This document shows, in pieces, positions 7,328-63,798 of a stretch of DNA of 64,000 bases (position 1 is its first letter; each line of letters opens with the position of its first letter). The stretch lies in IMG/VR virus record IMGVR_UViG_3300045988_149975. One strand, written 5' to 3'. Below the pieces are notes generated by a model that made no database searches, was not told the origin of the DNA, and was given only the letters and a program-made list of their open reading frames with translations. The DNA comes from a virus. The translations under genes and the position numbers were made by a program.

Positions 7328-7512
7328 CTATCAAAGGAACGGTATAAAGGATTACGGCGAAGCCTATCTACTCTCGAACTTAACCTATTCCATGTTCGCT
7401 GATTCCATGTCGGTCGATTTCGGCGTAAACGCCCTGTATCATTACGTTTAATGTCAATAGACACATCATTATTACTATTGCCTAATGTATTATAATCTTT
7501 TCTACTACCCAT
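7324..7512 (-). CDS. small Arg-rich ORF (62 aa) or a non-coding GC-rich spacer between dpdA and queC
   Basis: Locally GC-rich; repeated ACATGGAAT and GGCG...CGCC hairpins; the coding assignment is doubtful. Confidence 0.2.
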   Translation of the reverse strand: MGSRKDYNTLGNSNNDVSIDIKRNDTGRLRRNRPTWNQRTWNRLSSRVDRLRRNPLYRSFDR

Positions 7513-8090
7513 TATAATTCCCCCATTTCATTTTTAGTTAAATAGAATTTATATTTCTGTGCTTCTCGCCATTTACAGTCAGTACATTGTCCACAAGGCT
7601 CTCCTACATTATTTGCAAAATTACAGGAAAAAGTATCTTCTAAATTAACATTTAAAGAGCAGCCTATACGATACACTTCATCTTTATCCTTGTCTATAAA
7701 TGGTGCAATTACTTTATATTTGTCCTCAAATTCCACTCTTAAATAAGCATTTATAGCATCCACCCACTTTTGAGTAGTATCTATAAATTCTGTATTAGCA
7801 ATTAATCCTATATAAATATTAGCGTCCTTTGGATATACCCTATTAATTAATTCTAATACAAATCTTGCATTACGGCAAGGATTAAAACCATCTTTTTCAA
7901 TTTTGGAGCGCATTTTATCAAAATAATCAAACTCTTTATTCTCCAAAATTTCACCTACATTAATAAGTTTACTATCTGTATCTTCCATAATAAAGAAAAA
8001 TGTTTTAGGATTTAAACCTTTATGTTCCATCCATGCCTTCAACACTGTACTGTCATAACCATGACTCCATAATAAAAAATTATCTCTCAA
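7512..8090 (-). CDS. queC: QueC-like PP-loop ATPase (7-cyano-7-deazaguanine synthase family) with SGG changed to SHG
   Basis: FLLWSHGYDSTV aligns with the SGGxDS PP-loop; C-terminal CGQCTDCKWRE matches the QueC Zn site CGxCxxCxxR. Confidence 0.65.
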   Translation of the reverse strand: MRDNFLLWSHGYDSTVLKAWMEHKGLNPKTFFFIMEDTDSKLINVGEILENKEFDYFDKMRSKIEKDGFNPCRNARFVLELINRVYPKDANIYIGLIANTEFIDTTQKWVDAINAYLRVEFEDKYKVIAPFIDKDKDEVYRIGCSLNVNLEDTFSCNFANNVGEPCGQCTDCKWREAQKYKFYLTKNEMGEL

Positions 8091-12903: not shown

Positions 12904-13545
12904 TTACTTTACATTTAAAATTTTATGTAATTGTATACCTATCCTGCCCTTTATACTTCCGTCCAGTAAAGTTTTATTTATAAGTTTTACAGATTCCTCA
13001 TTGTTATTAACTGGTGAAAGAATTATTTCTGCTTTTGTAGGATATTTCTTCAAAATCTTTTTAGCAAATTCAATATCCCTCTCATTATCAATCACAAACT
13101 TAACTTCATCATAGGATTTTAATACAGCTAAATTATTATACTTATTAAGCCCTTCTACACCACTACATGGACATTTTATATCCATTACATAATTATAGCT
13201 TCTTTTATAGTCATCACTATCTATATCTATAAGTCCGCTTGTTTCAATACTTACAATATATGAAAAAGATAAAAGTTCATAAATAAGCGGGTAAATATCA
13301 TTCTGTAATAAAGGCTCTCCACCTGTTAAACAAACATATTTATTACCTAATTTACTTACCTCTAACATAATTTTATCCAAACTCATTAAACTATAATTCT
13401 TACCCTCACAAGCATATATTGAATCACAATATCTACAAAATGGCTTTGCAACACATCCATAAAACCTAATAAAAGTAGTAGGATAGCCCGTATACTTCCC
13501 CTCACCTTGTATTGATGAAAAAATTTCAACTACTTTCATTTTCAT
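12904..13545 (-). CDS. queE: 7-carboxy-7-deazaguanine synthase QueE (radical SAM)
   Basis: VEIFSSIQGEGKYTGYPTTFIRFYGC...C..C motif, and LTGGEPLL. Confidence 0.75.
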   Translation of the reverse strand: MKMKVVEIFSSIQGEGKYTGYPTTFIRFYGCVAKPFCRYCDSIYACEGKNYSLMSLDKIMLEVSKLGNKYVCLTGGEPLLQNDIYPLIYELLSFSYIVSIETSGLIDIDSDDYKRSYNYVMDIKCPCSGVEGLNKYNNLAVLKSYDEVKFVIDNERDIEFAKKILKKYPTKAEIILSPVNNNEESVKLINKTLLDGSIKGRIGIQLHKILNVK

Positions 13546-14334: not shown

Positions 14335-14362
14335 ATTATAACATATTTTGATAAAAATTCAA
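14335..14362 (-). promoter_or_regulatory. candidate promoter for spoVS (TTGAAT, 16 nt, TATAAT)
   Basis: Minus strand TTGAATttttatcaaaatatgtTATAAT, about 90 nt upstream of the start codon. Confidence 0.3.
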
Positions 14363-14892
14363 CATTGATTTATAATTTTTTTCTCATCAATAATAGAGAA
14401 AAAATCATTAAATTTCAACATTACAAAATCTTGTGACTTAAACTTTCCTTTTACCTGACTTTGGTGCATTATAAGTACAGGTATTTTTCCATTAATGCAA
14501 TCATTTTCTGCCTGTTTAAACCATTCCTGAACGGAAGTCCATCCATTCTTATGATTTTTAAGTTCTAAATGTAAGAGAAAATTTACATTATCAGTATAAC
14601 ATACTACATCTCCTCGCAAAGCATTATTCTCAATTCCCTTTAAATAACCACCACTTGATGCTGTTCTACCGAATTTAAGTAAAGGAAAAATTTTATTCAA
14701 CTCATTGACTATTTTCCTTTCAAAATTTGCACCTTTAGTTTTAGAGGATTTACCTAAATTGCTTTTTTTAATTTGTTTTTCTAATTTCTCTATTTCAGGA
14801 CTGTCAGGAGCATTTTCTTTCAAGAAAACTAATTTATCTTTTAATAAATCAACCCTACGCATTAAACTTTCCGCTCCTATTACTATCTTCAA
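14359..14892 (-). CDS. putative PD-(D/E)xK nuclease (Holliday-junction-resolvase-like)
   Basis: GDVVCYTDNVNFLLHLELKNHK gives a D...ExK pattern; lies in the recombination/replication module. Confidence 0.3.
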   Translation of the reverse strand: MKIVIGAESLMRRVDLLKDKLVFLKENAPDSPEIEKLEKQIKKSNLGKSSKTKGANFERKIVNELNKIFPLLKFGRTASSGGYLKGIENNALRGDVVCYTDNVNFLLHLELKNHKNGWTSVQEWFKQAENDCINGKIPVLIMHQSQVKGKFKSQDFVMLKFNDFFSIIDEKKIINQC

Positions 14893-16054: not shown

Positions 16055-16921
16055 CTAATTTCCCCTTTCACACAAATCTTTAAATGCACACCATTTACAA
16101 TAACGTGTATTATCCTTTTTAGGAATGATTCCTTCTGCTACATACTTATTAATCTCCTTACAACGATTAAGCAAATCACTAATTAAATCTCTATCCCATT
16201 CAAAGGGAAATTCCTTCAATTCTTGTGTATCTTTACATTCATAAAGAAAAATAATCTTTCTAATAGGTTTAGGATATTCCTCTAAAAGTTCAAGAGTTTT
16301 ATCAAAGATTGCCATTTTCTTTTCCAACTTCTGCTCTTTTGTATATTTTCTACCATCCTCTAAAAAACTCTCTAATTTAGTTTTATAAAGATTTCTTAAC
16401 CATTCCCCATCACCTAAAAGAACTTTTTTACGCATTTCATCTAAACAATACATATATAAACTTGCTTGAAGTTTATGTTCAGGTTTTGCATCAGTTAAAG
16501 CATTAAAACCGTTACTATTAATACTCTTAATTTCAAGTATTGATAACCTGTCACTATCTTTAAGTAAACCATCTGTATTACCCATTACTTCATATTCCAC
16601 ATTAAATACAGGTGCCTCATCAAGTAAAAGTACGCCTGCTTCTTTTAAATAACCTTGTAATCTCTCATGTACAAAAGTGCCATTATTTAAAATGCGGAGG
16701 GAACGTGGGTCATCATTAGCATTAGTCTTTTTAGCAAAACAACGGTTATAATAAGAAGCCCTCATGCAACCTCCTATACCACTTGGACTATTCCATCCAT
16801 GCCCCCTATCCTCTGTTCCGCTATCCTTCATTAAAAGCATATCAATAGCAGGAATTAACAGGCTGTTCTTTGTAAGTGTATTTAAAGAGGGAACACTTCC
16901 TACTACTTTAAACTTCTTCAA
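16055..16921 (-). CDS. PD-(D/E)xK exonuclease, Cas4/RecB-nuclease-like, with a 4-Cys cluster
   Basis: N-terminal Cys plus C-terminal CKWCAFKDLC; DGLL...LEIKS (D..ExK). Confidence 0.55.
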   Translation of the reverse strand: MKKFKVVGSVPSLNTLTKNSLLIPAIDMLLMKDSGTEDRGHGWNSPSGIGGCMRASYYNRCFAKKTNANDDPRSLRILNNGTFVHERLQGYLKEAGVLLLDEAPVFNVEYEVMGNTDGLLKDSDRLSILEIKSINSNGFNALTDAKPEHKLQASLYMYCLDEMRKKVLLGDGEWLRNLYKTKLESFLEDGRKYTKEQKLEKKMAIFDKTLELLEEYPKPIRKIIFLYECKDTQELKEFPFEWDRDLISDLLNRCKEINKYVAEGIIPKKDNTRYCKWCAFKDLCERGN

Positions 16922-17367: not shown

Positions 17368-17677
17368 CTTTCACATCCTCTGGTTTCCAAAAACAACAAA
17401 ATGTTCTACCTTCCTCTGTTACCATATCAAAAGGGGTAACAAAAGAATTTTGGCAGATGTCATTTTCGTCATAATATTTACAACTCTCACACCTTGAAAT
17501 GAAATGGGCAGCTTTCATTAAGGCTACATAAAGCCTTGTATCATAGCCTACATGAAAATCCAATACCTCACCTCCTTTATTGTAACTCTTGATAAGCAAA
17601 TTCACCAAAATATTTGAGTTCACCTGCTCTCCTTGCTTGTTTAGCCTCTTCCTCTGTTGTATAACACCATAGTTCAC
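17345..17677 (-). CDS. hypothetical protein
   Basis: 110-aa ORF. Confidence 0.4.
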   Translation of the reverse strand: MNYGVIQQRKRLNKQGEQVNSNILVNLLIKSYNKGGEVLDFHVGYDTRLYVALMKAAHFISRCESCKYYDENDICQNSFVTPFDMVTEEGRTFCCFWKPEDVKDETEEVK

Positions 17678-18753
17678 ATTCTTTTCACAATTTCAGCAAA
17701 CAATGATTCATTTTCCCTTAAAAGACGGACTAAATTATCTTGACCTTGTGCAAGCATTTGGGAATCCATGTAATACCACGCTCCCTTACGCTCTATAATA
17801 CCTTTAAGAACAGCTAATACAACTAACTCTTTAGCGGTATCAATAGAACCTTTAGGAAGTAATCCATCATCAGTATATAAATCGTATTCACCTGTTGTAA
17901 AAGCAGCACCTAATTTATTTTTCTGAATTTTCCATTTAATTACACGCCCTACAATTTTAGCATTAGTACCAGTGCCTTCTTTAATGTAATCGCCTGCCCT
18001 TAAACGGATTTCGATACTATTAGTAAACTTTTGGCTATTTCCTCCAGGAACAGTAGTAGGATCACCATAACCACCAATTTTATCCCTAAATTGATTTATG
18101 GATAAGACAGTAGTAGGCAGTTTACCATTCCTCTCCAAAGTATTATTAAAACTTTGAAATTTACCGTGATAAGTCTGTAATTTCAATGGTTTAATACCCA
18201 TTTGAGCAGTATCAGAAATATCTGTTTCAATATACTTTGTGGGTAACATGGCAGCAATAGAATCTATCACAATAAATTCCACACCCGCTTTTTGCAATTC
18301 TACTGCAATATCTAATGCTTGTTCCATACCTTCAGGTTGACAAAATAGTAATTTATCATTATCAATACCATTCTGCGCTCCCCATTCCTCACTATAACTA
18401 CCACTTTCAATTTGAATTAAAGCAGCTTGTAGGGGTATATCACCATCATCAGCTACTACCTCATATTCAAAATTGCCTTTAGTTATTTTCTTCTTATACA
18501 TATTCTGTACGGCAGCAATGGCTTTATAAGCAAGTAAAGATTTACCACTACTCTCTTGCCCTGCAAGTGTAATATATCGCCCCGAAGGTAAGCCACCACC
18601 TAATGCGTCATTAAGTGATACACTACCTAAAGGAATTTTGAAATTCATTTCATCATTTATATCTGCGCCCTTACGGATGGCATTTACGCCAAAGCGTTTG
18701 TTTATATCTTTTATTAGTGTATTTATATCTGCCATAATTTCCTCCTTTATCAT
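17674..18753 (-). CDS. RecA/UvsX-family recombinase
   Basis: ALGGGLPSGRYITLAGQESSGKS Walker A within a RecA-like N-terminal architecture. Confidence 0.7.
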   Translation of the reverse strand: MIKEEIMADINTLIKDINKRFGVNAIRKGADINDEMNFKIPLGSVSLNDALGGGLPSGRYITLAGQESSGKSLLAYKAIAAVQNMYKKKITKGNFEYEVVADDGDIPLQAALIQIESGSYSEEWGAQNGIDNDKLLFCQPEGMEQALDIAVELQKAGVEFIVIDSIAAMLPTKYIETDISDTAQMGIKPLKLQTYHGKFQSFNNTLERNGKLPTTVLSINQFRDKIGGYGDPTTVPGGNSQKFTNSIEIRLRAGDYIKEGTGTNAKIVGRVIKWKIQKNKLGAAFTTGEYDLYTDDGLLPKGSIDTAKELVVLAVLKGIIERKGAWYYMDSQMLAQGQDNLVRLLRENESLFAEIVKRM

Positions 18754-21008
18754 TTTGCGGTGTAATAATCCCTACCGTACCCGGTCTCTGCCTCCAAAGG
18801 AATAGTAAGGTGTATTCCTCTGCGTGGCATACAATGGCTCATAATATATTGCATACGCTCCATACACAAGTGTACAAACTCTGTGGGGCACATCATTACA
18901 ACCTCATCGTGTACAGAACTTACTTGATATGCGCCAATAGAATTAAGAATTGTATCATTGTCTAAATCTATCTGTGCAAATGCTACTGCATCAGCAGCAC
19001 TACCCTGCGAAAGCACATTCACTGCTACTCTTTCAAGATAAGAACGTACCCTCATATCTTCACTATTTATATCCCAAAGATGTCTTTTATGTCCACCCAA
19101 AGTTTTTACATAGCCATTTTCCCTTGCAAACTTTACTGCTGCTTTATCATAAGCGTGTAAACCGCTGAAACCCTCAAAATATTTATCAATATATCCTTGT
19201 GCTTCTTCTTTACTAATCTCAAGGTTTTTAGATACTGCTATACTCGTGCCCCCATAATCCACAGCGAAGCCTATCTTTTTAGCTATCTGCCTCTTTTCAG
19301 GGGCAATCTTTTTAACATCATTAGGGTTTACATCTTTAAGTTCAGGAAAAACCAAAGTAGCTACTGTTCCGTGGGGGTCAAGATTTTCTACCATCATTTT
19401 AATAAGCATTTTATCTTGAGATAAATGTGCTGTTAAAAATTTTTCCAAGGCATGATAATCGGCTGCCACTACTGAATAACCTTCATCTGCTATAAAAAGT
19501 TTTCTTATTTCAAATCTATCCCAAAAATCAAAATAAGTTCTATCTTCACCCTCTTTAGGCTCTTCTAAAGGATGAGGAAGCTGCTGAAGATTAGGCTGTT
19601 GACAAGATAAACGGAAACTATCTGTACCACACAACCCAAAACTACAATGCACTTTACCATCTTCATAAATTAAATCCCAAAGTCCATCCATAAAAGCACT
19701 TTTTAATTTTACTAACTTCTTATAATCAGTAAGACAATCTATAAATTTATGTGCTTCTTCTGATACTTTTTGGCGTTTTAATTTCTTTAACTCATCTTTA
19801 CCTACCTTCGGCGTTTTTAATTCCTCATAGGCATATTGCCCTCCTGCTGTCCATTCTACCACTTTAAAACCAAAATTTCTACTTACAAAATCTTTATTAT
19901 AACTTTCCTTAAAGATTACATTTGCCCTTTCAGACATTAACTGTTTCTTATAGCTTAATTTATCTTTTGTCGCCAAATTCTTTGCTACTTCATCATACGC
20001 TTTTTGCGCACTCTCATTAAGCTGTACAGCTTTCTTTTTAAAACCGAATAATAACTCATAAAGATTTTGTGAACTTGAAGGATTAAATTCTACCCCCGCT
20101 AAACTATATAGCTTATATTCAAGATTTTTAATCTCTATCTCTGCTTCTTTAGACATTTTCTCTAAAAGCTGTGTATCAATTCTAAAACCTTTTCGCTCCA
20201 TTTTCCACAACACTTTGAGATAAGGAATACGCACTTTATAATAGTAATCTGTCATTCCCTCATTCTTTAAGCCCTCAATAAGCTGCGGAAACATCTGTTT
20301 CATAAACCATACGTCCTCGGCAGAGTATTGTCCACCAATGGGAATCTGTACTTGCATAAAAGCGGCATTAGCATTGGCTTTTATACCTACTGATAATTTC
20401 TCATCATTTGTAACAGTCTTAATAACATCACTATAATGTGACTTTTCTACGCCATAAATCATTTTAGTTACTGCTTCCAAATTCTTTTCCACAGTTTCAT
20501 CTATAGTATGAACCATTACCATTGTATCTTCAATAATATTTTTATTAAAAACTTTTACTATATCTATATCCTCATTAGCAATGGCGTGTAAGTCAAAATC
20601 TATATTATGGGCAATATATGTCTTGCCCTCATTTTCCATTATTAATCTCAATCTCTGTGCAAAATTATAGGCATCTACATTGTAATATTCCCCTTCAAAC
20701 TTTGATTTATCAAAATCAGGAAAATATTTAGGATTAAAAAATTTCGGAGGAACAAGTCTAAAACGATTATTCTCTTTATATAATCCTTCAAAATCATGCC
20801 TCACAGGAACATAAAATACATCTTTAGATACTTCATCTTCAAAAGCAAATGTATAACCTACTACATAATCTTTCCCTGTCCATCTTACACTTGTCCCTGA
20901 AGTTTCAGTATCAAAATATACCATCTTTGCCTTTTCAAATAAAGCAAAAAAGGAGTCTAAAGAATGTTCCTGCACAATACTTAAATTAAAATATTTTTGG
21001 TGAAACAT
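18750..21008 (-). CDS. DNA polymerase, family A (Pol I-like) with a 3'-5' exonuclease domain
   Basis: Motif B RQIAKKIGFAVDYGG, motif C VHDEVVMM, and exo motifs upstream. Confidence 0.8.
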   Translation of the reverse strand: MFHQKYFNLSIVQEHSLDSFFALFEKAKMVYFDTETSGTSVRWTGKDYVVGYTFAFEDEVSKDVFYVPVRHDFEGLYKENNRFRLVPPKFFNPKYFPDFDKSKFEGEYYNVDAYNFAQRLRLIMENEGKTYIAHNIDFDLHAIANEDIDIVKVFNKNIIEDTMVMVHTIDETVEKNLEAVTKMIYGVEKSHYSDVIKTVTNDEKLSVGIKANANAAFMQVQIPIGGQYSAEDVWFMKQMFPQLIEGLKNEGMTDYYYKVRIPYLKVLWKMERKGFRIDTQLLEKMSKEAEIEIKNLEYKLYSLAGVEFNPSSSQNLYELLFGFKKKAVQLNESAQKAYDEVAKNLATKDKLSYKKQLMSERANVIFKESYNKDFVSRNFGFKVVEWTAGGQYAYEELKTPKVGKDELKKLKRQKVSEEAHKFIDCLTDYKKLVKLKSAFMDGLWDLIYEDGKVHCSFGLCGTDSFRLSCQQPNLQQLPHPLEEPKEGEDRTYFDFWDRFEIRKLFIADEGYSVVAADYHALEKFLTAHLSQDKMLIKMMVENLDPHGTVATLVFPELKDVNPNDVKKIAPEKRQIAKKIGFAVDYGGTSIAVSKNLEISKEEAQGYIDKYFEGFSGLHAYDKAAVKFARENGYVKTLGGHKRHLWDINSEDMRVRSYLERVAVNVLSQGSAADAVAFAQIDLDNDTILNSIGAYQVSSVHDEVVMMCPTEFVHLCMERMQYIMSHCMPRRGIHLTIPLEAETGYGRDYYTAK

Positions 21009-21294
21009 CTTTACTCTCCTTTACTACTTTCCTATACCTCTCTGTCATACTTGGCACAATGCGAGTTACTTTAGCATATTCTATCTGTCCTGTAAGCACG
21101 TTATGATATTTTTTGGGCTTTGATTCTGCAATATGGTAATCCATAATAGGGTATAACCTAAAACGCTTATATCCGTCTTTAGTTAAATCTTCAATAGCGA
21201 GTAATACATTATCTACCATCTTTCTTGCCTCATTAAGTGATACATTCTGCATTGTCCCGATTTTCCTTGCAATAATCTCTCTATTTGCTAACAT
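20986..21294 (-). CDS. HU/IHF-like DNA-binding protein
   Basis: 102 aa; layout resembles bacterial HU (N-terminal helices, beta-arm with conserved R/K/P spacing). Confidence 0.45.
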   Translation of the reverse strand: MLANREIIARKIGTMQNVSLNEARKMVDNVLLAIEDLTKDGYKRFRLYPIMDYHIAESKPKKYHNVLTGQIEYAKVTRIVPSMTERYRKVVKESKDVSPKIF

Positions 21295-31748: not shown

Positions 31749-33148
31749 TTATGCCCCTAATTTTTCCACAATCTCATCTTTTGTAAAACCAAGGTTTTTA
31801 TAAAGACTCCGTGGATTTTCTACATATTCGTATTTTAAAATGGTAGTCTTACCATTTTCTTCCATTGTTTCATATTTAACTGTATCTGTATTCTTGCCTG
31901 CTTTTTCTACCTCACCTGCATAAATCCAAATATAATCATCAAATAATAGATTACCCCATAAAGGCTTCCAAACTTCCTCGTTGAAATTTTCTGCCATATA
32001 ATAGTAATCCTCTTTAGAACTTAATACTTTTGGTATACCTCTCATTAATAACTCAATCCTTTCTTTAACAGAATCTAATTTTATACTTTTACGAAAATTA
32101 TAGGTATTTGCCCACTTCATCCAACCTTCTATACTGGCTACCATACCTCTTGCATAGTCCAAATCTAAATCAGCAGTCTTTAATAGACTATCCAATTTTC
32201 TAAACCTGCGTTTTATCCTTTTTGCTGTACTCTTTCTTAATAAAACACAGTTGTTAGGAAATGTCCTATAACCAAGAAAGTCTACACCTTGCGTTATAGG
32301 AAATACATTACTTTTACTTAATAACAGGTTTAACTTATCATAAGCAAATACCTTCGCTTTTTCAGCTACCTCATGTAACTCCTTCTTATCATTACCGAAA
32401 ATTATAAAATCATCACAATACCTTATATATGCACTACATTTTAAATCATACTTTATATAAGTGTCTAATTCATTCATGTATAGATTACCAAACCACTGTG
32501 AAAGATAATTTCCAATAGGTACGCCCGCCTTTCTATGACCAAATTCCTCTACATATCTTTCAAGTTTTCCACGCATTATATCAGCATCTTTACGCCCTTC
32601 AAAATTCTTCAAATAACCTATATTAGCTTCTCTTGTTGCAAGGCTATCTATTATTATATCAAGAATACTTAATAAATCTTTATCTTTAATCTTTTTACGC
32701 AATATTATTTTCAATATTTCATGGTCAATATTTACATAAAATTGTGAAATATCAAGTTTAGCACAATACTTATACTTTCTTACATATTCAGAGCATTTTA
32801 TCATTCCCTTATGCTGCCCCTTACCTTTACGACAAGCATAACTATCATATATAAATAAACTATCCCAAATAGGCTCTAACACATTCATTATAGCATGATG
32901 TACTATTCTATCAGGATAATATGGAAGTACATAAATTAAACGCAATTTAGGCTCATACATTGAATAAATCCTATAAACGGAGTTCTTATAATTTCCATCC
33001 ATTAAATCTTTTTGTAATGATAATAGGTTAGCTTCCAAATTTTCTCTTACTTTAATAACCTCTGATAAATTTCCTTTACCTTTTCCTGCTTTTAATTCAG
33101 CAATTTTAAGATTTTCAATATCAATAATTCTATTCCAAAGATTTCCAT
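31749..33148 (-). CDS. diversity-generating retroelement (DGR) reverse transcriptase
   Basis: YIRYCDDFIIFG (YxDD); PIGNYLSQWFGNLYMNELD, the DGR-specific IGxxxSQ signature; N-terminal NLWNRIIDIENLKIAELKAGKGKGN. The conserved N-terminus extends upstream of the tracker start at 33038; see findings. Confidence 0.8.
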
Positions 33149-33397
33149 ATCTTCGTATTTGAAAAACACCCTCTCTATTAAAAAGTTTAACAAATTGGCA
33201 CTCTTTATAAAGAGTGCCAAAATGCTATTTAGGTATTTAGGTAAATTGATTTTCGCCTTAACTACTAACCCCTTTACCATCCTGTAATGTGTTTCTGCTT
33301 TCGCAGAGGATAGAGATTCAGCCGAAGGATTAGCTTTATACCTATTGTATGATACCTTCGTATCACTACAGCTACGCTCGCCGTTGTTAGAGTTCAC
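33092..33397 (-). CDS. doubtful ORF overlapping the TR and the RT 5' end (no convincing Avd features)
   Basis: 101-aa ORF; its C-terminal third overlaps the conserved RT N-terminus in another frame. Confidence 0.15.
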   Translation of the reverse strand: MNSNNGERSCSDTKVSYNRYKANPSAESLSSAKAETHYRMVKGLVVKAKINLPKYLNSILALFIKSANLLNFLIERVFFKYEDMEIFGIELLILKILKLLN

Positions 33398-33481
33398 ATT
33401 CGCTGAAGCATTATTGACATTAACTGAACGAGAACTGCAACTCGAACTGTTATTCCAGTTACTGCCGAGTTTCGCCTTTAT
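33362..33481 (-). repeat. DGR template repeat (TR)
   Basis: About 120 bp, near-identical to the VR except at roughly 25 positions. At every one of those positions the TR carries A on the minus (transcribed) strand. Confidence 0.75.
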
Positions 33482-33611
33482 AACCTCTACCCTTTTAGTT
33501 GCAACTATTTATATATATAAATTGGGGGTACGAGATGGTTGTCTACATTACCTCTCCAAGTTTATATCAACTTAAACACCACATTAACTTGAATTAATGG
33601 GCTACGCCAAC

Positions 33612-34673
33612 TCAATTCCCAAGTTTATGGAGCGGCTCACCACAGCCACGCCCGCCGCTGAAAGAGTCCACAAGCGCCGAAGCACCATTGACATCAACCG
33701 AACGAGAACCGCAACCCGAACCGCCACCCCAGAGACCGCCGAGCCTCGCCCTGTACAAAGTACCATAGCTTCTACCATAAGACTGGTCATCTACACCACT
33801 ATTATATACAGAATCATTCCAACCACTTGAACCGTTTACACCAACATCACTTGCCCATTGCCATAAGAAACCACAAGCATCTTCAAGCCCATAATTACTT
33901 ATCATTCTTCTGCCCGCTGTATCAACGTGTCCACCAGTTGTATTGGCATCTGTACTACCTTGTATATTAGTACCTTCATTACTTCCTTTTGCCGCCACCT
34001 GAAACTCATATCTCCACGGCAATCTTTTCTTTATATCAGCAAGTCTTTCTACAAACTGTTCACCATGAAATTTCTTTGTAGAAGCACCATCTGCTGTTGT
34101 TCCACCATTTACACTCACAAGTTTACTTCCATTCCACGAGTTTAAGTAAATGTCCATCCATATATCTACTTCAGGAATATAAACCATTCCTTCAGGTGAA
34201 CATTTTGGGCGATGAATTAAATCCCATACTGATTGTGGTAATATATCACCTGCTACATAACCACTTAATGTATGCCCGCTTATCGTACCCACATTTGTAC
34301 ATAAACAATGGAAACCACCTATTTTTCTACTATTATCTGCATTATAACCATTAGGTACAGTAGAATTTAAAGATAATACAAAATCTAATCCATTATTTTC
34401 TACTGCATACACATAAACATCTTTACCGTTTCTATTTGCCAAACTTAAAGACAATGTTTTATCCATATCAGTAGAGTATACATTATCATTTATTCTTAAA
34501 ACCATCCCCGCAGGTATTGTTACAGTAGTCTTATTTGTAGTCATTAAACTTTTTCTATTAAAATAAGTATCAATATACTTTGCCAAAATTTCTTCACTAA
34601 AATTTTCACCATCTATTAAAGAGTTTAAATATGCTCTAATTGTTTCTACCCTTAAATTATTTAATTTATCCAT
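33612..34673 (-). CDS. DGR target protein: tail fibre / receptor-binding protein with a C-type-lectin (FGE-like) fold VR at the C-terminus
   Basis: 353 aa; C-terminal ...YRARLGGLWGGGSGCGSRSVDVNGAS... is encoded by the VR; lies in the tail-fibre gene block. Confidence 0.7.
   Translation of the reverse strand: MDKLNNLRVETIRAYLNSLIDGENFSEEILAKYIDTYFNRKSLMTTNKTTVTIPAGMVLRINDNVYSTDMDKTLSLSLANRNGKDVYVYAVENNGLDFVLSLNSTVPNGYNADNSRKIGGFHCLCTNVGTISGHTLSGYVAGDILPQSVWDLIHRPKCSPEGMVYIPEVDIWMDIYLNSWNGSKLVSVNGGTTADGASTKKFHGEQFVERLADIKKRLPWRYEFQVAAKGSNEGTNIQGSTDANTTGGHVDTAGRRMISNYGLEDACGFLWQWASDVGVNGSSGWNDSVYNSGVDDQSYGRSYGTLYRARLGGLWGGGSGCGSRSVDVNGASALVDSFSGGRGCGEPLHKLGN
33636..33755 (-). repeat. DGR variable repeat (VR) at the 3' end of the target gene
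   Basis: Matches the TR 33362-33481. All mismatches are TR-A to VR-G/C/T on the coding strand; locally GC-rich. Confidence 0.75.
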
Positions 34674-34969: not shown

Positions 34970-35197
34970 TTATATAATTAAGAATAAATACCATACCCCT
35001 AAAACCGCACCTAATATTATAAAATACTTTATGTATATTAAAATATAAAGCGCAATTAAATCATACATGGTCATTACATGGGCAGAGGTACGATTACTAA
35101 TACAATAACTAAATACTATACAAACTATTACTGCTAATACAAACCATACTGCTAATGCTATCTCTAAAACCCCAATCATTCTTCTACCTCTTTCCAT
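34970..35197 (-). CDS. small membrane protein
   Basis: 75 aa, two hydrophobic helices. Confidence 0.35.
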   Translation of the reverse strand: MERGRRMIGVLEIALAVWFVLAVIVCIVFSYCISNRTSAHVMTMYDLIALYILIYIKYFIILGAVLGVWYLFLII

Positions 35198-35886
35198 CCT
35201 TGCGGATATGCTTCAGGACTCCATACATTATTATCTATTACACTTTCATAAATTTTTCCATTGAATTTTACTTTGTCACCTTTCATATAAGGATTAGTTG
35301 AAGATGGTTGCTCCCAATCTAATATTTCTCCCTCACTTGTCAGCACTTTTGCAAATAAAGAGGGCGCAGAAGTTGGTGTCCATCCTTCTTGAGATGTATG
35401 ATTTTGTAATACTTTGTATAATACATTATTATATAATACTTTATCACCTACTACATATTCTTTACTATTACCATTCCAGTGAGGGAATACTTCGGTCATT
35501 TTTAACGCCGCTCCATCACTAATAGAACGCAGTTTAGTTTGATAAGTATTCTTTGTTTCTACTAAATCATCATCTGCTAATGACATCATCATAGCATTTA
35601 TGGCTAAAGTTTGTAATTCATTTTTTGCTGCCGCTGCTTCTTGTTCATCTAACTCATCTTGTGTTGGCACATAAGGTGGCTCTTCTTCATAAACTACTTC
35701 ACCATCTACTTCCTTGCGTATATACACTTTACCATCCGTATTACCTATAAGTAATTGATAATCTTCCTCATTAATCTCTATATAACCTTCATCTAAAAGT
35801 TCTTGTATTCTTTCTTCTGTCATTTCTTCTTTTACATAAGTTTCTTGACGATTTCCATTTTCATCGAACTTAATAATATATGTCAT
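35176..35886 (-). CDS. protein with two CBM5/12-like carbohydrate-binding repeats (tail-associated)
   Basis: GDKVLYNNVLYKV...GWTP and YMKGDKVKFNGKIYESVIDNNVWSP repeats; acidic N-terminal half. Confidence 0.4.
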   Translation of the reverse strand: MTYIIKFDENGNRQETYVKEEMTEERIQELLDEGYIEINEEDYQLLIGNTDGKVYIRKEVDGEVVYEEEPPYVPTQDELDEQEAAAAKNELQTLAINAMMMSLADDDLVETKNTYQTKLRSISDGAALKMTEVFPHWNGNSKEYVVGDKVLYNNVLYKVLQNHTSQEGWTPTSAPSLFAKVLTSEGEILDWEQPSSTNPYMKGDKVKFNGKIYESVIDNNVWSPEAYPQGWKEVEE

Positions 35887-35946: not shown

Positions 35947-36237
35947 TTGGACAATCTCCAAAGGTACTAATGGTTGGGCGAGGGAGAGTAGCACAGGATT
36001 CACAATTCAATGGGGGAGAGGCACAACATCTTCAAATTGGAATACAAAAATTTTTTTAATAGAAGTTTTAGTAGTATTTATACTATAAATTTAGATATTT
36101 ATAATCCTAATGGTAGTCCTGCAAGTGGGGTTTATCAGGACAGCGGCGGTATTACGTATTTTGATAATGATGGTTTTTACGGCGGTTTTTCACGAGTTGG
36201 TTACACGTTTTTTTGGATAGCAGTAGGTATATCTTAA
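35947..36237 (+). other. silent tail-fibre C-terminal cassette 1 (plus orientation, internally frameshifted)
   Basis: Begins with a 33-nt stretch identical to the inverse of the main gene at 37058-37090, then encodes ARESSTGFTIQWG. After an A5T7 run it continues in another frame ...NFFNRSFSSIYTI...GYTFFWIAVGIS*. Confidence 0.5.
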
Positions 36238-36240
36238 TGT

Positions 36241-36286
36241 TTGCTGAAATGCAATTTTTAAAAATTTAAAAATTGCATTTCAGCAA
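36241..36286. repeat. 46-bp perfect palindrome between convergent cassettes
   Basis: TTGCTGAAATGCAATTTTTAAAAATTTAAAAATTGCATTTCAGCAA; hairpin that could act as a bidirectional terminator or a recombination element. Confidence 0.6.
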
Positions 36287-36308
36287 ACAAATTAGCTTAT
36301 TCCAATGG

Positions 36309-36556
36309 CTATCCAATTACATCTATTAAACCACGGGCTACCCCCATATCTTGTTGATATAAGTAAAATCCACTTTTATCTACAGTTCTTACTTGAAATT
36401 CTCCATCATATCTTGAGGGATTATTAGTATCAGTATTTACTAAACTTACCATCATAGTATAATAAGTAGTAAAAGTTCGAGGAAAATTGAATTTACCAAT
36501 TTGTTGTTCAGATGCACTATTAGTGCCTACTACTTGCCCCCATTGAATTGTGAATC
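36309..36556 (-). other. silent tail-fibre C-terminal cassette (minus orientation)
   Basis: Starts with GGATTCACAATTCAATGGGGG (GFTIQWG), a 21-nt perfect inverted copy of 35996-36016; encodes ...FNFPRTFTTYY...GLIDVIG*. Confidence 0.45.
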
Positions 36557-36561
36557 CTTAA

Positions 36562-36816
36562 AAATTCACTTTATAAACCCCATTTTATACTGGTTTTACT
36601 ATACAATGGGGTTCAACTGGTACTTTAAGCGGCACTGCAACAATTTCTTTTCCTCGCACATTTTCTACTGTTTATCAAGTTATACCTGTCGGAAATGTAG
36701 AAGAAACAAATGAAAACTGGGGTTTCCCATTAAATGAACGTCCTACAACAAAGAATTTTAAAGCTGCACATTGGTATAGTGGTCAGTGGAGATACATTGC
36801 AGTAGGAATTAGCTAA
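36562..36816 (+). other. silent tail-fibre C-terminal cassette 2 (plus orientation)
   Basis: Contains TACTGGTTTTACTATACAATGGGG, a 24-nt perfect inverted copy of the expressed gene at 37022-37045. Encodes GFTIQWGSTGTLSG...ISFPRTFSTVYQ...WRYIAVGIS*; its stop overlaps the main gene stop inside the palindrome GGAATTAGCTAATTCC. Confidence 0.5.
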
Positions 36817-38242
36817 TTCCAATAGCATACCATAATAAATATCCTCCTGTAGTATACATTTGACCCCAAAGCCAATTAAAATTTGTTGTAGAAAAAGATT
36901 TTATACGGGAAGTATATTTTTCGTCATTAGTATTTAAACCTGTTTGTGTTAAATATACTCCATATAAAGTTGTAAACTTTCTGGGAAAAGTTGTAGTACC
37001 GGCTACTGCTTTGCCTGTAGTTCCCCATTGTATAGTAAAACCAGTAGATGATTCACGTGCCCAACCATTAGTACCTTTGGAGATTGTCCATCCATTATTA
37101 GTAATACTACCACTTCCGCCGCCGATTCCTGCACCATCAGCAGGGTCAGGTGAAGGCTGTGTACTTCCTGTTGTACCTGCTACTTTACATACCAAAAAAC
37201 AACCTGCATATTGCTTACCTACAAGTTTACGCACTGTATCTCTTGTAACAGTTTCATTAGGCTGCCAATATCCAGTATCTACATCTGTTAAAACTCTTTT
37301 CCATACATAATTAGTATCTTCACTTGCTGTATCAATAGAAAATTGCAATACATAATTTACTGCATACCCATTTCCACTCTCTGTTGTAATCTCATAAAAA
37401 ACATGATTAGTATGCGCTCTTACTACTGTCAAATTACCAGTTTGAGAAGGATAATTATATGTATTACCTTCCCCACCAATTCCCACTATGAGCATTGAAT
37501 TTGCAGGTAAAGCATTACCTATTGCATAAGGTGAATTATCTAATACTCCCCCGCTTAACCCTATTTGACTTAATTGACTATAAGTCTTAATATTTGTTAA
37601 ATCATTAAGCGATTTTTTATTTACCACATCATAATCATTTACAGGGCTTTTATCTGTCTGTAAACTTTTAAATAATGTAGGGATTACATTCATATCACTA
37701 CCTAAAGTTACTAAATTCGTAACAGATGTATTTACCACAGGGGCAATCCACTCTTCTGTTGTATAACCACTTACCCATAAAGTATCTGCATTACCAGTTG
37801 TTAGTTTTAAGCCCGCATATTTTATATTATTATATGTAAAAGTACAAGGCTCTGCTTTGGCATCATCACTATTTGTAGTATTAAAATTTACATTACATTC
37901 ATTAGAATTGTGTACTTTTTGTAAATTAATGTCACAATTTACCGCTGCTGTACTACCATTTTTAGTAGACATTACTACCTTCAATGAGCAAGCAGAGAAT
38001 TTTGCAATATCTATATTATCTAATACTGCTAAAGGCAATACCTGTGTAGTACCTGTTCCTAAAGTTGTTTCATGAATTAAGAATTTAGCATTAGTTCCTT
38101 TAAACTGTACAGGCATTACCTGCCAACGAGAAGCATCATCTACATATTCTTTTAAAGAATTAAAATTCTCATTTAATAAAGGGGCAAGTTCTGTATCTAC
38201 ATATTCTTCCCCTGTAAAAATGTGTAAATCTCCTAAAGCCAT
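36809..38242 (-). CDS. tail fibre protein whose C-terminal roughly 85-aa module is exchangeable with the silent cassettes
   Basis: 477 aa; C-terminus ...STGFTIQWGTTGKAVAGTTTFPRKFTTLYG...GGYLLWYAIGIS*, homologous to the three cassettes. Confidence 0.6.
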   Translation of the reverse strand: MALGDLHIFTGEEYVDTELAPLLNENFNSLKEYVDDASRWQVMPVQFKGTNAKFLIHETTLGTGTTQVLPLAVLDNIDIAKFSACSLKVVMSTKNGSTAAVNCDINLQKVHNSNECNVNFNTTNSDDAKAEPCTFTYNNIKYAGLKLTTGNADTLWVSGYTTEEWIAPVVNTSVTNLVTLGSDMNVIPTLFKSLQTDKSPVNDYDVVNKKSLNDLTNIKTYSQLSQIGLSGGVLDNSPYAIGNALPANSMLIVGIGGEGNTYNYPSQTGNLTVVRAHTNHVFYEITTESGNGYAVNYVLQFSIDTASEDTNYVWKRVLTDVDTGYWQPNETVTRDTVRKLVGKQYAGCFLVCKVAGTTGSTQPSPDPADGAGIGGGSGSITNNGWTISKGTNGWARESSTGFTIQWGTTGKAVAGTTTFPRKFTTLYGVYLTQTGLNTNDEKYTSRIKSFSTTNFNWLWGQMYTTGGYLLWYAIGIS

Positions 38243-40064: not shown

Positions 40065-40736
40065 TTACTCCCCCTTATACGCAAATTCACCAAACAACTC
40101 TTCTCTTAACTCTTTAGCGACTTTTGCTGCTTCCTCTTCAGTGTCATAACTGCCACCATAAAAACGCTTACCATCTTTGCTACAATACGCTTTCCATTTA
40201 CCCGTTTCCTTATTATAAGAATAACCCTTACGCCTATGATTCATATTGTTTTGCCTTACTGTACAAATTCTTAAATTGCACTTCCTATTATCTGCTTTAT
40301 CGTGGCTAATATGGTCAACTATCATTCCTTCAGGGCAATCCATAATAAACCTGTTTAAACGAATATGTGTATGTGTAGTTTGCCAATAACCTTTAGAACC
40401 TAATGTAAAATAATGCGGTTTTACTTTCTCAATATCCTCCGTATCTATTAAAGTATAATTTCCCTTATTATCATACATTTTTGTAACTTCACCATCTATA
40501 TAATATGTGTTATAAGCCCTGTTCTTTAAAGAAATTGCCTTTCTCATATTACAACCACAAGAAGTTGTACTACCTTGTCTTAAAGAACGATATATAACAG
40601 GTTTTACATTTCCACAATCACATTGACATAAAACCTGCGCTTCAGTATTGCCTGACTTTGTAATCTTGTCAGGCAATAATCCAATAATTTCCATTCTACC
40701 ATATCTTTCCCCAATTTGAGGAATAATCTTTCTCAT
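40065..40736 (-). CDS. HNH homing endonuclease with a C-terminal AP2 DNA-binding domain
   Basis: Cys-rich N-terminus; HNH region MIVDHISHDKADNRKCNLRICTVRQNNMNH; AP2-like KWKAYCSKDGKRFYGGSYDTEEEAA. Confidence 0.7.
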   Translation of the reverse strand: MRKIIPQIGERYGRMEIIGLLPDKITKSGNTEAQVLCQCDCGNVKPVIYRSLRQGSTTSCGCNMRKAISLKNRAYNTYYIDGEVTKMYDNKGNYTLIDTEDIEKVKPHYFTLGSKGYWQTTHTHIRLNRFIMDCPEGMIVDHISHDKADNRKCNLRICTVRQNNMNHRRKGYSYNKETGKWKAYCSKDGKRFYGGSYDTEEEAAKVAKELREELFGEFAYKGE

Positions 40737-61386: not shown

Positions 61387-63798
61387 TCACCACCTTATCC
61401 TATGATTTCTTCTGCCTACAAATATATTCCTCTTTGTAGTCTGTATAAACTCATTGTTATCTACTACTTCAACTTCCCCAACATCATGCTTTAATCCCCA
61501 TACCATTAAGGCAGCACTAAATGGGTAATCATCATGTTTATTTCTTTCTTTAGGGGCAGCCACTACAAGTTTATCGCCCCTATAATCCTTTGTAAGTTCA
61601 AGACATTGCTCTTGAAATTTCCTATACTCAATAGTATCTTGTGCGCTCGAACTTGATGGATAGTGAAAACATTTATTATTAAGGTATGCACTAAAATTTT
61701 TCATTAACATACTCTTACTTGCAGGGGTAAATACAAAAGGTATCACTGGAAAATCTACATTAGCTGCTAATCTATCAGCTACTGGACTTCCTACACCGCT
61801 TCCATCTATAACACATAACTTGATATTAAATCTATTCAAATAATCCTTTACTTTATAAAACTGCTCTTCATAGTTGTCACCAACTATTTCCAACCAATCT
61901 ATTATCTTTATGTCATAAAGTACATAATCCTCTGCATCATACTCTGTTGCCTTTTCTAATACCACAGGACTTTCATAATTCGGAATACCTATTGTTACTA
62001 CTGTACTATCTTGTGATTTACCAACATCAATACCTGCTATGCAAACTTGATCTTTACAATAATCCATCCTATCTAATGTAGAATCTGCAACAGGGTCAGT
62101 AGTAAATAACTCTCCGTCAATGAACATACCAAACTGAAATACCCATTTCAAGCAGTTATGACTTGCAAGCCCCTCTGCTATAAAGGTATGTGTTGATGTT
62201 CTAATAGGAATTACTTTTCTATTACCGACAAATTTAACGCTTGTAACGTGAGGGTGTATATCCCTACCTAATTCACCATTTGAACATCTTAAAGTGCCCA
62301 AAGTATTAACATCAAGATTTTCAAGTAACCTTTTAGGTCTTACCATTCCTAAAAATTTGAGGGTTTCCCTCTTACCACCTGTTATTATGAGTCTATAAAC
62401 ATCATCTTGGTTTCTTTCAGCATATATAGGACTTGTATAATAACTATACTCAAATCCATATTTATCTAAACACTCTTTAACGTGCTTGAGCATTGCATTA
62501 TCTCTTTGTGCAAAACAAAGTTGTTGCAATCGCCCATCTGCGTGTCCTACATTACCTTCACCGTCAAAAGCAGCAGCTAAATAACCTAAATCATAATCAC
62601 TTTTTGGCATTTCCCATTTATTCAAAATTTTATATGCCCTATCAGTAAGTTTGAGGTCTTTAGTTTTTCTCCAACGTGTCAGTCTACCAGGTGTCATTAC
62701 AAGCCACTGATGCTCCTCCGAACAAGTAACTTTAGTACCATCCTCAAAAGTTACCTCATAACAAGGTCTTTCAATCTCACCTACATCTTCTACAATAGCT
62801 TCTCTGTATTTACGCTGTCCATATTTACCAGGTTTTTCCTCATCAAAACCTAATAATTTGTCGCCAACTTTAATAGAATCTGCTCTTACCCATCTTAAAT
62901 CTGCTGTAAGAATTTCCGTTTCAGGTGCAACACAGTAGTTCATTTCAAATTCCACACTGTTTTCACCCATTATCTTTTTAGCAGCTTCTACTGTTTTAGC
63001 GTATTTAGGATTATATTTAATAATCGTTTCATAGTTATACTCAAAATGATTTCTCTTTTTCTTGCCATTTTCATATTCTTTTTTATTTAATTCAATAGCA
63101 TCATAAAAAAAGTTTTTCTTAATTGACGGCGTACCAATAAGAATTTTAGTACCATTATAGAATGATACAGTAGGAAATATGGATTTCCTGTATTTATAAT
63201 TACTAATATCCTGTGCTTCATCACAAACATATAAATGGTATGAACCACCTTCAATGTTTGAACCGTCACTTGCTGAAAAACAAGTTATGGAAGATTTAAC
63301 ACCTAAATTATTAAATACAATAGTTACTCTCTCACCATTAAAAGTATCTTTAGTAATATTAAATTCATCACTTTCTAATATCTCTATTGCTCTTTTTGAT
63401 GATAAAAAATCTTTAATATTATTAAAGATAATCCTCGCCTGCGCCAGTGTTGGCGCAAATACGCCCATCATAATACCATTTTTAAACGGCTGTAAACGTG
63501 TATCATCTGCAAATAATGGCATATTAGCAAATACAGGTAGTATTACCATTAAACCTGATAATGTGGCTGATACTGTAAAACTTTTACCACTCTGTCGGGA
63601 CATAAGAGAAGTTATAGTGTCAGGGTCATTTGAAAGTACACCTTCGATAATTCTCCTACTAAATTGTGCTTGATGTGGAAAGAACTTTCTACCAGTCAAC
63701 ATTTCACAAAAAATCTGTATCTTACGAGTTAGTTCAGAAGTTTTAAGTGTTCTTCCTGTATAAGTAATAATATCACCACCTACATAACAAAAAACCAC
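61387..63798 (-). CDS. terminase large subunit containing a full-length intein
   Basis: Walker A SRQSGKS, Walker B HLYVCDEAQD, C-terminal nuclease domain. An intein lies between EFEMNY and CLKWVFQF. The true start is probably downstream of the tracker GTG, which sits inside a hairpin. Confidence 0.85.
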   Translation of the reverse strand: MVFCYVGGDIITYTGRTLKTSELTRKIQIFCEMLTGRKFFPHQAQFSRRIIEGVLSNDPDTITSLMSRQSGKSFTVSATLSGLMVILPVFANMPLFADDTRLQPFKNGIMMGVFAPTLAQARIIFNNIKDFLSSKRAIEILESDEFNITKDTFNGERVTIVFNNLGVKSSITCFSASDGSNIEGGSYHLYVCDEAQDISNYKYRKSIFPTVSFYNGTKILIGTPSIKKNFFYDAIELNKKEYENGKKKRNHFEYNYETIIKYNPKYAKTVEAAKKIMGENSVEFEMNYCVAPETEILTADLRWVRADSIKVGDKLLGFDEEKPGKYGQRKYREAIVEDVGEIERPCYEVTFEDGTKVTCSEEHQWLVMTPGRLTRWRKTKDLKLTDRAYKILNKWEMPKSDYDLGYLAAAFDGEGNVGHADGRLQQLCFAQRDNAMLKHVKECLDKYGFEYSYYTSPIYAERNQDDVYRLIITGGKRETLKFLGMVRPKRLLENLDVNTLGTLRCSNGELGRDIHPHVTSVKFVGNRKVIPIRTSTHTFIAEGLASHNCLKWVFQFGMFIDGELFTTDPVADSTLDRMDYCKDQVCIAGIDVGKSQDSTVVTIGIPNYESPVVLEKATEYDAEDYVLYDIKIIDWLEIVGDNYEEQFYKVKDYLNRFNIKLCVIDGSGVGSPVADRLAANVDFPVIPFVFTPASKSMLMKNFSAYLNNKCFHYPSSSSAQDTIEYRKFQEQCLELTKDYRGDKLVVAAPKERNKHDDYPFSAALMVWGLKHDVGEVEVVDNNEFIQTTKRNIFVGRRNHRIRW
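62155..62934 (-). mobile_element. intein (260 aa) with a LAGLIDADG homing-endonuclease domain, in the terminase ATPase domain
   Basis: CVAPETEILT N-terminal splicing block; YLAAAFDGEGNV LAGLIDADG motif; C-terminal THTFIAEGLASHN, then Cys+1. Confidence 0.8.

Follow-up and report, generated by a model that had tools for sequence, protein, structure and literature searches.

A nested invertible switch for the tail-fibre tip of an uncultured human-gut phage, with palindromes at the centres of its modules

What is the role of palindromes that lie exactly where convergent reading frames end, within DNA that can be turned over? The question is raised by a 64,000-nt stretch (33% GC) of the IMG/VR record IMGVR_UViG_3300045988_149975, hereafter the window, in which a tail-fibre gene (477 aa, 36809..38242, minus strand) is adjoined by three further versions of its own C-terminal tip. 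The four tips form two tail-to-tail pairs: the pair called alpha has a 52-bp hairpin palindrome at its junction, and the pair called beta a 16-bp palindrome. The locus is a nested invertible switch for the tip of the tail fibre, by which an uncultured human-gut phage swaps this tip among four versions via two small invertible DNA modules. Flipped arrangements in related genomes show that both palindromes are the centres of the invertible modules, carried inside the blocks that turn over, and that they are not crossover sites. How, then, are the modules turned over, and does either palindrome take part? Our reading as a whole is a nested switch with homology-driven flips made by phage enzymes and with the alpha palindrome as a stimulator. 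It is probable rather than secure, and it is least certain as to the enzymes and to what the hairpin does. Below, call letters beginning with L denote genomes or contigs of relatives, and those beginning with P denote fibre homologue proteins.

Tail-fibre genes belong to the enriched targets of programmed inversion (PMC9881135). The fibre gene of the window is in a short form, with the constant part joined straight to the tip. Residues 399-475 align with positions 3-83 of 84 of the Pfam profile Gp53-like_C (PF21882) at 28.4 bits (cutoff 24.9), and this domain is precomputed on fibre homologues too. Among 158 fibre homologues from human-gut metagenomes, the N-terminal ~380 aa are conserved and the distal, C-terminal parts are mosaic. 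GenBank holds no nucleotide match to the window and no protein match to the tip; the portal protein has only 35% identity with that of Bacillus phage BCD7. The host is probably one of the Bacillota.

Four paralogous Gp53-like_C cassettes, coding for tips of ~75-90 aa, make up the two tail-to-tail pairs, alpha (B and A) and beta (D and C). The expressed tip of the window is D (36809..37042, minus strand; GFTIQWG...LLWYAIGIS-stop), also expressed in P0002/L005. Its partner C (36592..36816, plus strand; GFTIQWGSTGT...RYIAVGIS-stop) is silent and intact here; P0009/L037 and P0057/L041 express it on this backbone. The alpha cassettes B (36296..36557, minus strand) and A (35996..36237, plus strand) are silent and frameshifted. 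By three-frame translation, one base (A) has been lost from B at ~36350-36352; in cassette A a T run at 36051-36057 has 7 T, and intact copies have 8. Intact B occurs in L005 and in P0049/L007, expressed in the latter, and intact A in L005, L007 and L038, where it is expressed (P0036). All three silent tips start with GFTIQWG and end in (A/V)(I/V)GIS-stop. Every tip of the window has been found expressed on this backbone: A in P0021, P0030 and P0036, B in P0049, C in P0009, P0057 and P0060, and D in P0001 and P0002. Assembly error was considered as the source of the two frameshifts and is unlikely, as the frameshifted B open reading frame (ORF) and the frameshifted 75-aa A ORF both recur in contig L046, a separate assembly 2 single-nucleotide differences from the window. 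The alpha module, with its dead cassettes, still seems to flip.

Which sequences could allow the cassettes to change places? Three pairs of perfect inverted repeats, each 100% identical between its two copies, are present: alpha (22 nt), beta (24 nt) and outer (32 nt). The alpha and beta modules are each bracketed by their own repeat, placed in the GFTIQWG head of the cassettes, and the outer repeat brackets both modules. The outer-lying copy of the alpha repeat, AGGATTCACAATTCAATGGGGG (35995..36016, plus strand), codes for the GFTIQWG of A, and the inner copy is in the head of B (36537..36558, minus strand). The beta repeat has its inner copy, TACTGGTTTTACTATACAATGGGG, in the head of C (36588..36611, plus strand) and its perfect inverted partner within the expressed gene, in the head of D (37023..37046, minus strand). 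The distal copy of the outer repeat, TGGACAATCTCCAAAGGTACTAATGGTTGGGC (35948..35979, plus strand), codes for WTISKGTNGWA, and its perfect inverted partner is again within the expressed gene (37059..37090, minus strand). Flipping beta, alpha or the whole segment puts D, C, A or B on the constant part of the gene.

Heads of the alpha module code for the same peptide as those of beta but with different codons, and identical runs between them are at most 8 nt. Only inverted head partners are identical, and heads in direct orientation (alpha vs beta) are not. Judged from the codon differences, this divergence between direct-orientation copies would be a protection against recombination that deletes cassettes. 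Between the two inner heads lies a non-coding spacer (36559..36587), nearly identical in five genomes. Short segments in it, AAAATGGGG and GTGAAT, are complementary to the two heads and fold into two small stems (-24.5 kcal/mol); the spacer may be the scar of an old head-to-head event. Longer relatives have further levels in the form of nested inverted repeats, one of 37-39 nt that lies on IHSALPINSVLEY and one of 21 nt that lies on LAKQSDL (L007 5200-5238/7499-7537; L043 3700-3736/6023-6059 and 3977-3997/5801-5821). These relatives carry a silent inverted shaft-plus-tip extension of ~260 aa; the short-form fibre of the window is without these levels.

Scans of IMG/VR with the alpha and beta head patterns returned only L002, or nothing. 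When metagenomes were scanned with the outer-repeat pattern, most matches came from an unrelated phage that has a single tip. This phage, of ~114 kb and from the same kind of sample (L003 11819-14137; L030-L036), has one tip of the same family, ending in AIGVS, and the 32-nt sequence coding for WTISKGTNGWA is identical in it at the DNA level. The identity points, on sequence grounds, to a recent exchange of tip modules between phage lineages.

Does the locus in fact invert? Seven more genomes carry it (L005, L007, L037, L038, L041, L043 and L045), and all share one architecture: alpha heads with a hairpin junction, beta heads with an 8-bp overlap and exactly GGAATTAGCTAATTCC at the junction, the spacer, and the 32-nt outer repeat. 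The cassettes that fill this layout vary. The alpha positions are occupied by B/A, E/F, E/A, I/J or F'/L, and the beta positions by D/C, G/H or K/G'. The window and L005 are colinear. The order in L007, const-B>hairpin<A-spacer-C><D, is that of the window after an outer and an alpha inversion; the aligned segments of L007 change at the 32-nt and 22-nt repeats, the distal copy of the outer repeat and the outer-lying copy of the alpha repeat being end points. In L037 and L041, C is expressed and D is silent, which is the beta flip. Between L041 (I>hairpin<J) and L043 (J>hairpin<I) the I/J pair of the alpha module has been flipped. The 3-nt hairpin loop, CTT in one of the two genomes and AAG in the second, shows that the whole block, hairpin included, has been turned over. 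In every rearrangement the tail-to-tail pair and its junction are left intact, the pair moving as a rigid block. The initial annotation had proposed an invertible locus whose palindromes are unchanged by inversion, and the flipped states among relatives bear it out on both points. It had left the breakpoints to either the GFTIQWG repeats or the palindromes; all rearrangement end points and all seven informative contig ends place them at the head repeats.

These contig ends deserve a closer description, as contig-end geometry stands in here for a read test of the inversion breakpoints, with k=55 inferred for the assemblies. At seven contig ends from six samples, the terminal 55 nt have one end flush with an edge of the alpha repeat. 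How these 55 nt divide follows the length of the repeat in the genome concerned: 22+33 in L004 and L006, 23+32 in L037, and 25+30 in L042 and L044, with L002 ending exactly at the repeat edge. The 597-bp contig L046 runs from flank (33) plus repeat to the other repeat edge. In window coordinates, the ends of L002 and L046 are flush with the outer-lying copy of the alpha repeat, and L004, L006 and L046 end at the edge of the inner copy or one 55-mer from it. L004 and L046 come from one sample and overlap by exactly that 55-mer. A repeat of 22-25 nt cannot by itself branch a k=55 graph, so the cassette body must be joined via the repeat to two flanks in the reads. This implies that both alpha orientations are present within samples. 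The beta and outer repeats, the hairpin and the 16-bp palindrome are all free of contig ends. In SPAdes-type assemblies the contig was interrupted by a silent alpha module in five cases out of five (L004, L006, L037, L042 and L044) and by a silent beta module in none of five (L007, L038, L039, L040 and L045), a difference that gives a one-sided Fisher p of ~0.004 on this small sample. Only the module with the hairpin thus looks heterogeneous in the assemblies, and the homology available to beta is no less than that available to alpha.

Could the palindromes nevertheless be crossover cores, either of these inversions or of a second recombination system? Crossover sites of site-specific systems are often short and dyad-symmetric, as the palindromes are, and the junction and the final ~25 nt of the cassettes beside it are conserved even where the cassette bodies have been exchanged between genomes (A/B, A/E, E/F). 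Such conserved flanks amid exchanged bodies could anchor homology for the replacement of cassettes between phages. All observed inversions, however, keep the junctions and the partners, and the asymmetric CTT/AAG loop turns with its block. Segment boundaries are at the head repeats, with none of the seven informative contig ends at a palindrome, and a lone palindromic site has no partner with which to invert. For inversion the idea is already contradicted, and overall we regard it as highly improbable. The suggestion of recombination cores in the initial annotation must accordingly be corrected: the palindromes mark the centres of blocks and not their break points, and one of them is a by-product of coding.

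That one is the 16-bp palindrome of the beta junction, GGAATTAGCTAATTCC (36805..36820), between D and C. How did it arise? As initially described, it is perfect and holds the Gly-Ile-Ser-stop ends of both reading frames: plus-strand cassette C ends ...AVGIS-TAA (stop 36814-36816), and the minus-strand fibre gene ends ...AIGIS-TAA (stop 36811-36809). The description of the two stops as overlapping is right for the ORFs, which share 8 bp (36809-36816, TTAGCTAA), but not for the stop codons, each of which lies over the Ile and Ser codons of the other ORF. Perfect 16-bp palindromes are not rare as such, with five found in the window against 2.3 expected from first-order Markov simulations. It is the position of this one at both stops, and its exact conservation at the corresponding junction in seven relatives (L005, L007, L037, L038, L041, L043 and L045, with the pairs C/D, G/H and K/G'), that make it non-random.

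The endings of the protein family offer an explanation. GIS ends 45 of 64 related tips and GVS ends 7 of 64; the common GIS ending is therefore a property of the family. If Ile-Ser-stop is spelled ATT AGC TAA, its final eight bases (TTAGCTAA) are self-complementary, so that two convergent ORFs can share them; the overlapped bases are then constrained on both strands, which would keep the junction identical in three cassette pairs. The alpha cassettes code for Gly-Ile-Ser-stop with other codons, GGTATATCTTAA and GGAATAAGCTAA, and hence the protein does not demand this DNA sequence. We infer that the 16-bp palindrome is a frozen by-product of convergent ORFs that end in the GIS-stop of the family (GGA ATT AGC TAA). 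The 8-bp overlap also gives the smallest possible beta module, ~410 bp, as we read it. It had further been proposed that symmetric ends keep a functional stop in either orientation, but every cassette has its own stop regardless of symmetry.

The junction of the alpha module is a different matter. It had been described as a 46-bp perfect palindrome at 36241-36286; its symmetry is confirmed, but it is not perfect, as the central AA is non-complementary, and the true element is longer. The hairpin spans 52 bp (36238..36289) between the stops of A and B, with 25-nt arms (36238-36262 and 36265-36289) and a 2-nt centre. Nothing like the 25-nt-arm repeat is found elsewhere in the window. A chance origin was considered and rejected, arms of 25 nt being far beyond chance. 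Folded as RNA, the two strands give -32.7 and -34.4 kcal/mol (z -6.9 and -9.3). Across six genomes the arms have a single substitution, which leaves a G.U pair on the sense strand in L038, and the centre reads AA, GG, GT or AC. L041 and L043 have a diverged version, CGTTTTTCTGAAAGCAATTTATAA-CTT-, in which 8 of 24 pairs are compensatory relative to the first version and none is broken. Pairs that change on both sides with none broken indicate that the symmetry of the hairpin is maintained. The hairpin occurs between five different cassette pairs, once per genome in all eight genomes. From these features the 52-bp element appears to be a separately conserved stem-loop or palindrome specific to the alpha module. 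Rfam 15 gives only sub-threshold matches for it, to eukaryotic miRNA-precursor models, and the IMG/VR and GTDB genomes hold no exact match to the hairpin pattern.

Is this symmetry kept for the sake of the DNA or of the RNA? The symmetric junctions could be orientation-independent stop-plus-terminator elements, as the initial annotation had it, or RNA stem-loops that end or insulate the fibre transcript. The RNA is very stable on both strands; the hairpin starts right after the stop codon, and in all arrangements seen exactly one copy of it separates the fibre gene from the gene that follows. The two diverged versions keep all 24 pairs, the one G.U being on the sense strand, and the loop bases vary freely. 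The stem, however, has only 6 G-C pairs in 25, neither strand has a U tract (the 3' flanks are AAUUAGCU and UUAAGAUA), and a terminator scan does not call it. Its U-rich side is 5' and its A-rich side 3', opposite to a terminator. With beta beside the gene, moreover, the expressed cassette is ~0.5 kb from the hairpin, and the beta junction has no significant structure (z -1.3 and -1.7).

Relatives without cassettes (L001, L008 and L009) also speak to this question. The gene that adjoins the cassette locus downstream in the window (35176..35886, minus strand), which codes for a tail-fibre-assembly-like N-terminus followed by CBM_5_12 repeats, comes in these relatives straight after the fibre gene. 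The gaps there are 14-52 nt, weakly structured and without a hairpin, and the two genes look co-transcribed, so that termination at this place is not expected. A canonical intrinsic terminator is rejected on these grounds together with the AT-rich stem, the missing U tract and the negative scan. A role of the junctions in ending or insulating the transcript is, in the broader sense, unlikely.

A further alternative is that the junctions have no function at all. They would be relics of the inverted duplications that created the pairs, with the hairpin arms homogenized by gene conversion and the 16-bp palindrome kept by double coding. This accounts fully for the 16-bp palindrome. As for the hairpin, arms only 2-3 nt apart can homogenize each other, and apparently compensatory changes could then arise without selection. 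Yet six genomes have a single substitution in the arms, against 3-8% divergence of the adjacent cassettes and a centre that is different in most of the genomes, and exactly one hairpin is kept in all eight genomes despite the replacement of cassettes. For both junctions together, the absence of function seems decidedly unlikely.

Which enzymes might turn the modules over? Resolvase, Recombinase and Phage_integrase domains were not found in window ORFs of at least 100 aa between 1 and 46 kb, nor were recombinase domains found in ~26 kb more of genome in close relatives, and a serine-recombinase active site (YxRVSTxxQ-type motif) is absent from the six frames of the whole window. The window does code for a UvsX-like recombinase (17674-18753), a Cas4-domain exonuclease (16055-16921) and a Holliday-junction resolvase-like protein (14359-14892). 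We propose that homology-guided recombination between the pairwise-identical heads would invert the modules without a dedicated invertase. The inversion would be done by these three phage proteins, and the alpha palindrome, at the DNA level, would be a structure-forming site that raises the flipping rate of its module. That the flips are made by the general recombination machinery of the phage we put at about even chances; the rate-raising role of the alpha palindrome is more tentative, and on balance doubtful.

The repeats themselves bear on the choice of enzyme. Across the relatives there are 4-5 repeat sequences, mutually unrelated and each placed on a conserved linker motif. Compared by eye (alpha, beta, outer, IHSALPINSVLEY and LAKQSDL repeats), they show no common core, shared consensus or obvious dyad symmetry. 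The motif ACAAT was considered as a shared element, being present in four of the five repeats, but it is a product of Thr-Ile and Gln-Trp/Gln-Ser codons and was not used as evidence. Unrelated repeats on linker motifs fit homology-guided recombination better than a single sequence-specific invertase.

A dedicated invertase acting on the alpha repeat has to be considered all the same, with the palindrome perhaps as an accessory site or enhancer; it would be coded in the other ~11 kb of the phage or by the host, and on this view the beta and outer segments would flip only rarely, as side events. The repeats, at 22-32 bp, have the usual size of invertase sites, and only alpha is heterogeneous within samples though the homology of beta is equal or longer. 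Some known invertases act on dissimilar repeats, namely C. difficile RecV and B. fragilis Mpi, and there is a weak HU-like DNA-binding protein at 20986-21294. The domain scans argue against an invertase, as does the lack of a consensus or obvious dyad symmetry among the 4-5 repeats. Known tail-fibre inversion systems, moreover, keep the invertase beside the segment: in Mu (gin), P1 (cin) and e14 (pin) the invertase adjoins the invertible segment. We consider a dedicated enzyme rather unlikely.

In its stronger form, the proposed role of the alpha palindrome would be that of a DNA-level recombination initiator. Extrusion of a cruciform or hairpin, followed by a cut or a replication stall, would lead to frequent, invertase-free flipping at the 22-nt repeats, with the phage Holliday-junction resolvase, the Cas4-type exonuclease and the UvsX-like recombinase as candidates for the processing. 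Such an initiator would explain why heterogeneity is seen only in the module with the hairpin, why the centre of the hairpin varies while its arms are constant, and why no invertase was found. Even so, we think it improbable in this specific form.

Several observations weigh against homology-driven flipping stimulated by the alpha palindrome. At 22-32 bp, the repeats have the length typical of sites used by site-specific invertases, which is short for a RecA-type reaction, and homology alone leaves it unexplained that alpha flips more than beta. The heterogeneity itself is deduced from contig-end geometry and an assumed k=55, and the same graph would be expected from a flipped strain living alongside; the contrast between alpha and beta comes from ten assemblies. 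A phage invertase could be coded in the window ORFs of 46-64 kb (structural genes) or in the ~11 kb of cassette-bearing genome that lie outside the scan. As to the hairpin, compensatory changes in a perfect palindrome do not separate RNA-level from DNA-level constraint, and the one G.U pair, on the sense strand of L038, leans to the RNA level. Lastly, 3 of the 24 silent cassettes seen are frameshifted (A and B of the window, and D of L037 at 5002-5313), which suggests that selection on the switch is weak.

How does the locus compare with known inversion systems? The G segment of Mu with Gin, the C segment of P1 with Cin and the P segment of e14 with Pin are alike in that an inversion bounded by repeats swaps the C-terminal receptor-binding part for a convergent alternative, with one version expressed per genome. 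In those systems a single repeat pair (gix/cix sites of 26-34 bp that conform to one consensus) is served by a serine invertase whose gene lies alongside and by an enhancer that depends on Fis, and every alternative brings its own assembly gene. In contrast, the window phage and its relatives have 3-5 nested and unrelated repeat pairs and no detected invertase gene. The four alternatives are tips of ~75-90 aa only, and one module has overlapping stops and the other a conserved palindrome. Inverted repeats of the fibre gene do bracket alternative C-termini, as in the serine-invertase class, but no Resolvase-family (PF00239-type) match was found beside the segment in the scanned ORFs, and the by-eye comparison gave no ~26-bp dyad-symmetric site consensus.

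Also comparable are the Min system of p15B and the R64 shufflon (Rci), where several cassettes and crossover sites give many arrangements of the C-terminus of an adhesin. In these, all sites have one consensus and are served by one adjacent recombinase, and any inverted pair can recombine. The locus of the window likewise yields several C-termini by multiple inversions: four tips are expressed, and single and double inversions separate the genomes. It differs in having pair-specific repeats and a strict two-level binary hierarchy, in which direct-orientation heads share runs of at most 8 nt; there is no Phage_integrase match in the scanned ORFs and no common core to the repeats.

Phase-variable type I restriction-modification hsdS loci (for instance pneumococcal SpnD39III/ivr) resemble the switch in another respect, as nested repeat pairs of differing sequence shuffle half-gene cassettes, and some hsdS inversions persist without the recombinase of the locus. 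These loci are chromosomal or in prophages, usually with a tyrosine or serine recombinase nearby, whereas the window belongs to a ~100-kb lytic-type uncultured phage in which no such gene was found. The hairpin has parallels of its own. Bidirectional intrinsic terminators also have a symmetric stem-loop exactly between convergent stops, but the stem of the hairpin is not G+C-rich and lacks the flanking A and U tracts, in keeping with the negative scan. The guanine quadruplex (G4) of Neisseria pilE and the inverted repeat between Borrelia vlsE and its silent cassettes are conserved elements able to form non-B DNA, placed beside silent cassettes that recombine without a site-specific recombinase. 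The likeness to the hairpin may be no closer than analogy; those systems use unidirectional gene conversion and not inversion.

Switching of tail-fibre tips by inversion is classical; in the temperate phages and plasmids that show it, it has been linked with a dedicated invertase. The uncultured human-gut phages described here, a widespread family of ~91-101 kb, have a compact two-level switch for four receptor-binding tips, and for more in their longer variants. New are the pair-specific nested repeats, the two kinds of junction (overlapping stops and palindrome) retained as constant components of the modules, the fact that a lytic-type gut phage apparently has no invertase, and a diversity-generating retroelement (DGR) on a neighbouring tail gene. 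If the flips are driven by homology and stimulated by structure, lytic phages would have in them a cheap and general hedge of host range, and recurrent assembly breaks in gut virome contigs would be accounted for. Should the palindrome act as an initiator, the phage would have a structure-triggered cassette switch with a logic like that of G4-initiated pilin variation.

The DGR is complete and lies ~2 kb from the cassette locus (31749-34673). It consists of a reverse transcriptase (31749-33038, minus strand), a 114-nt template-like repeat (33363-33476) and a 77% identical variable copy (33637-33750) at the 3' end of an Mtd-like tail gene (33612-34673). With a DGR beside the switch, the phage has two independent diversifiers of host range. 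A 26-bp perfect palindrome (33195-33220), the longest perfect even palindrome of the window, is placed between the reverse transcriptase gene and the template repeat and may be a DGR-associated hairpin.

An HNH-AP2 homing-endonuclease gene (40065-40736) is inserted in the tail module of the window and is also found in L004, L009 and L037; L008 has an HNH-only variant at the same position, and the insertion is absent from L005 and L007. Inteins or homing-endonuclease insertions also occur in the ribonucleotide reductase and terminase genes (window 8792-11671 and 61387-63798), and the RNA ligase of relatives has an insertion as well, being 720 aa (L010 5834-7996) against 357 aa in the window. 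A 7-deazaguanine-type DNA-modification set (5462-8090 and 12904-13545) comprises a queuine tRNA-ribosyltransferase-like (DpdA-like) protein of 621 aa, QueC and a radical-SAM protein, with DNA methyltransferases near this set. Outside the window, relatives have a gene-free stretch of ~2.1 kb upstream of a DUF2828 gene (L012 706-2883; L013 851-2861).

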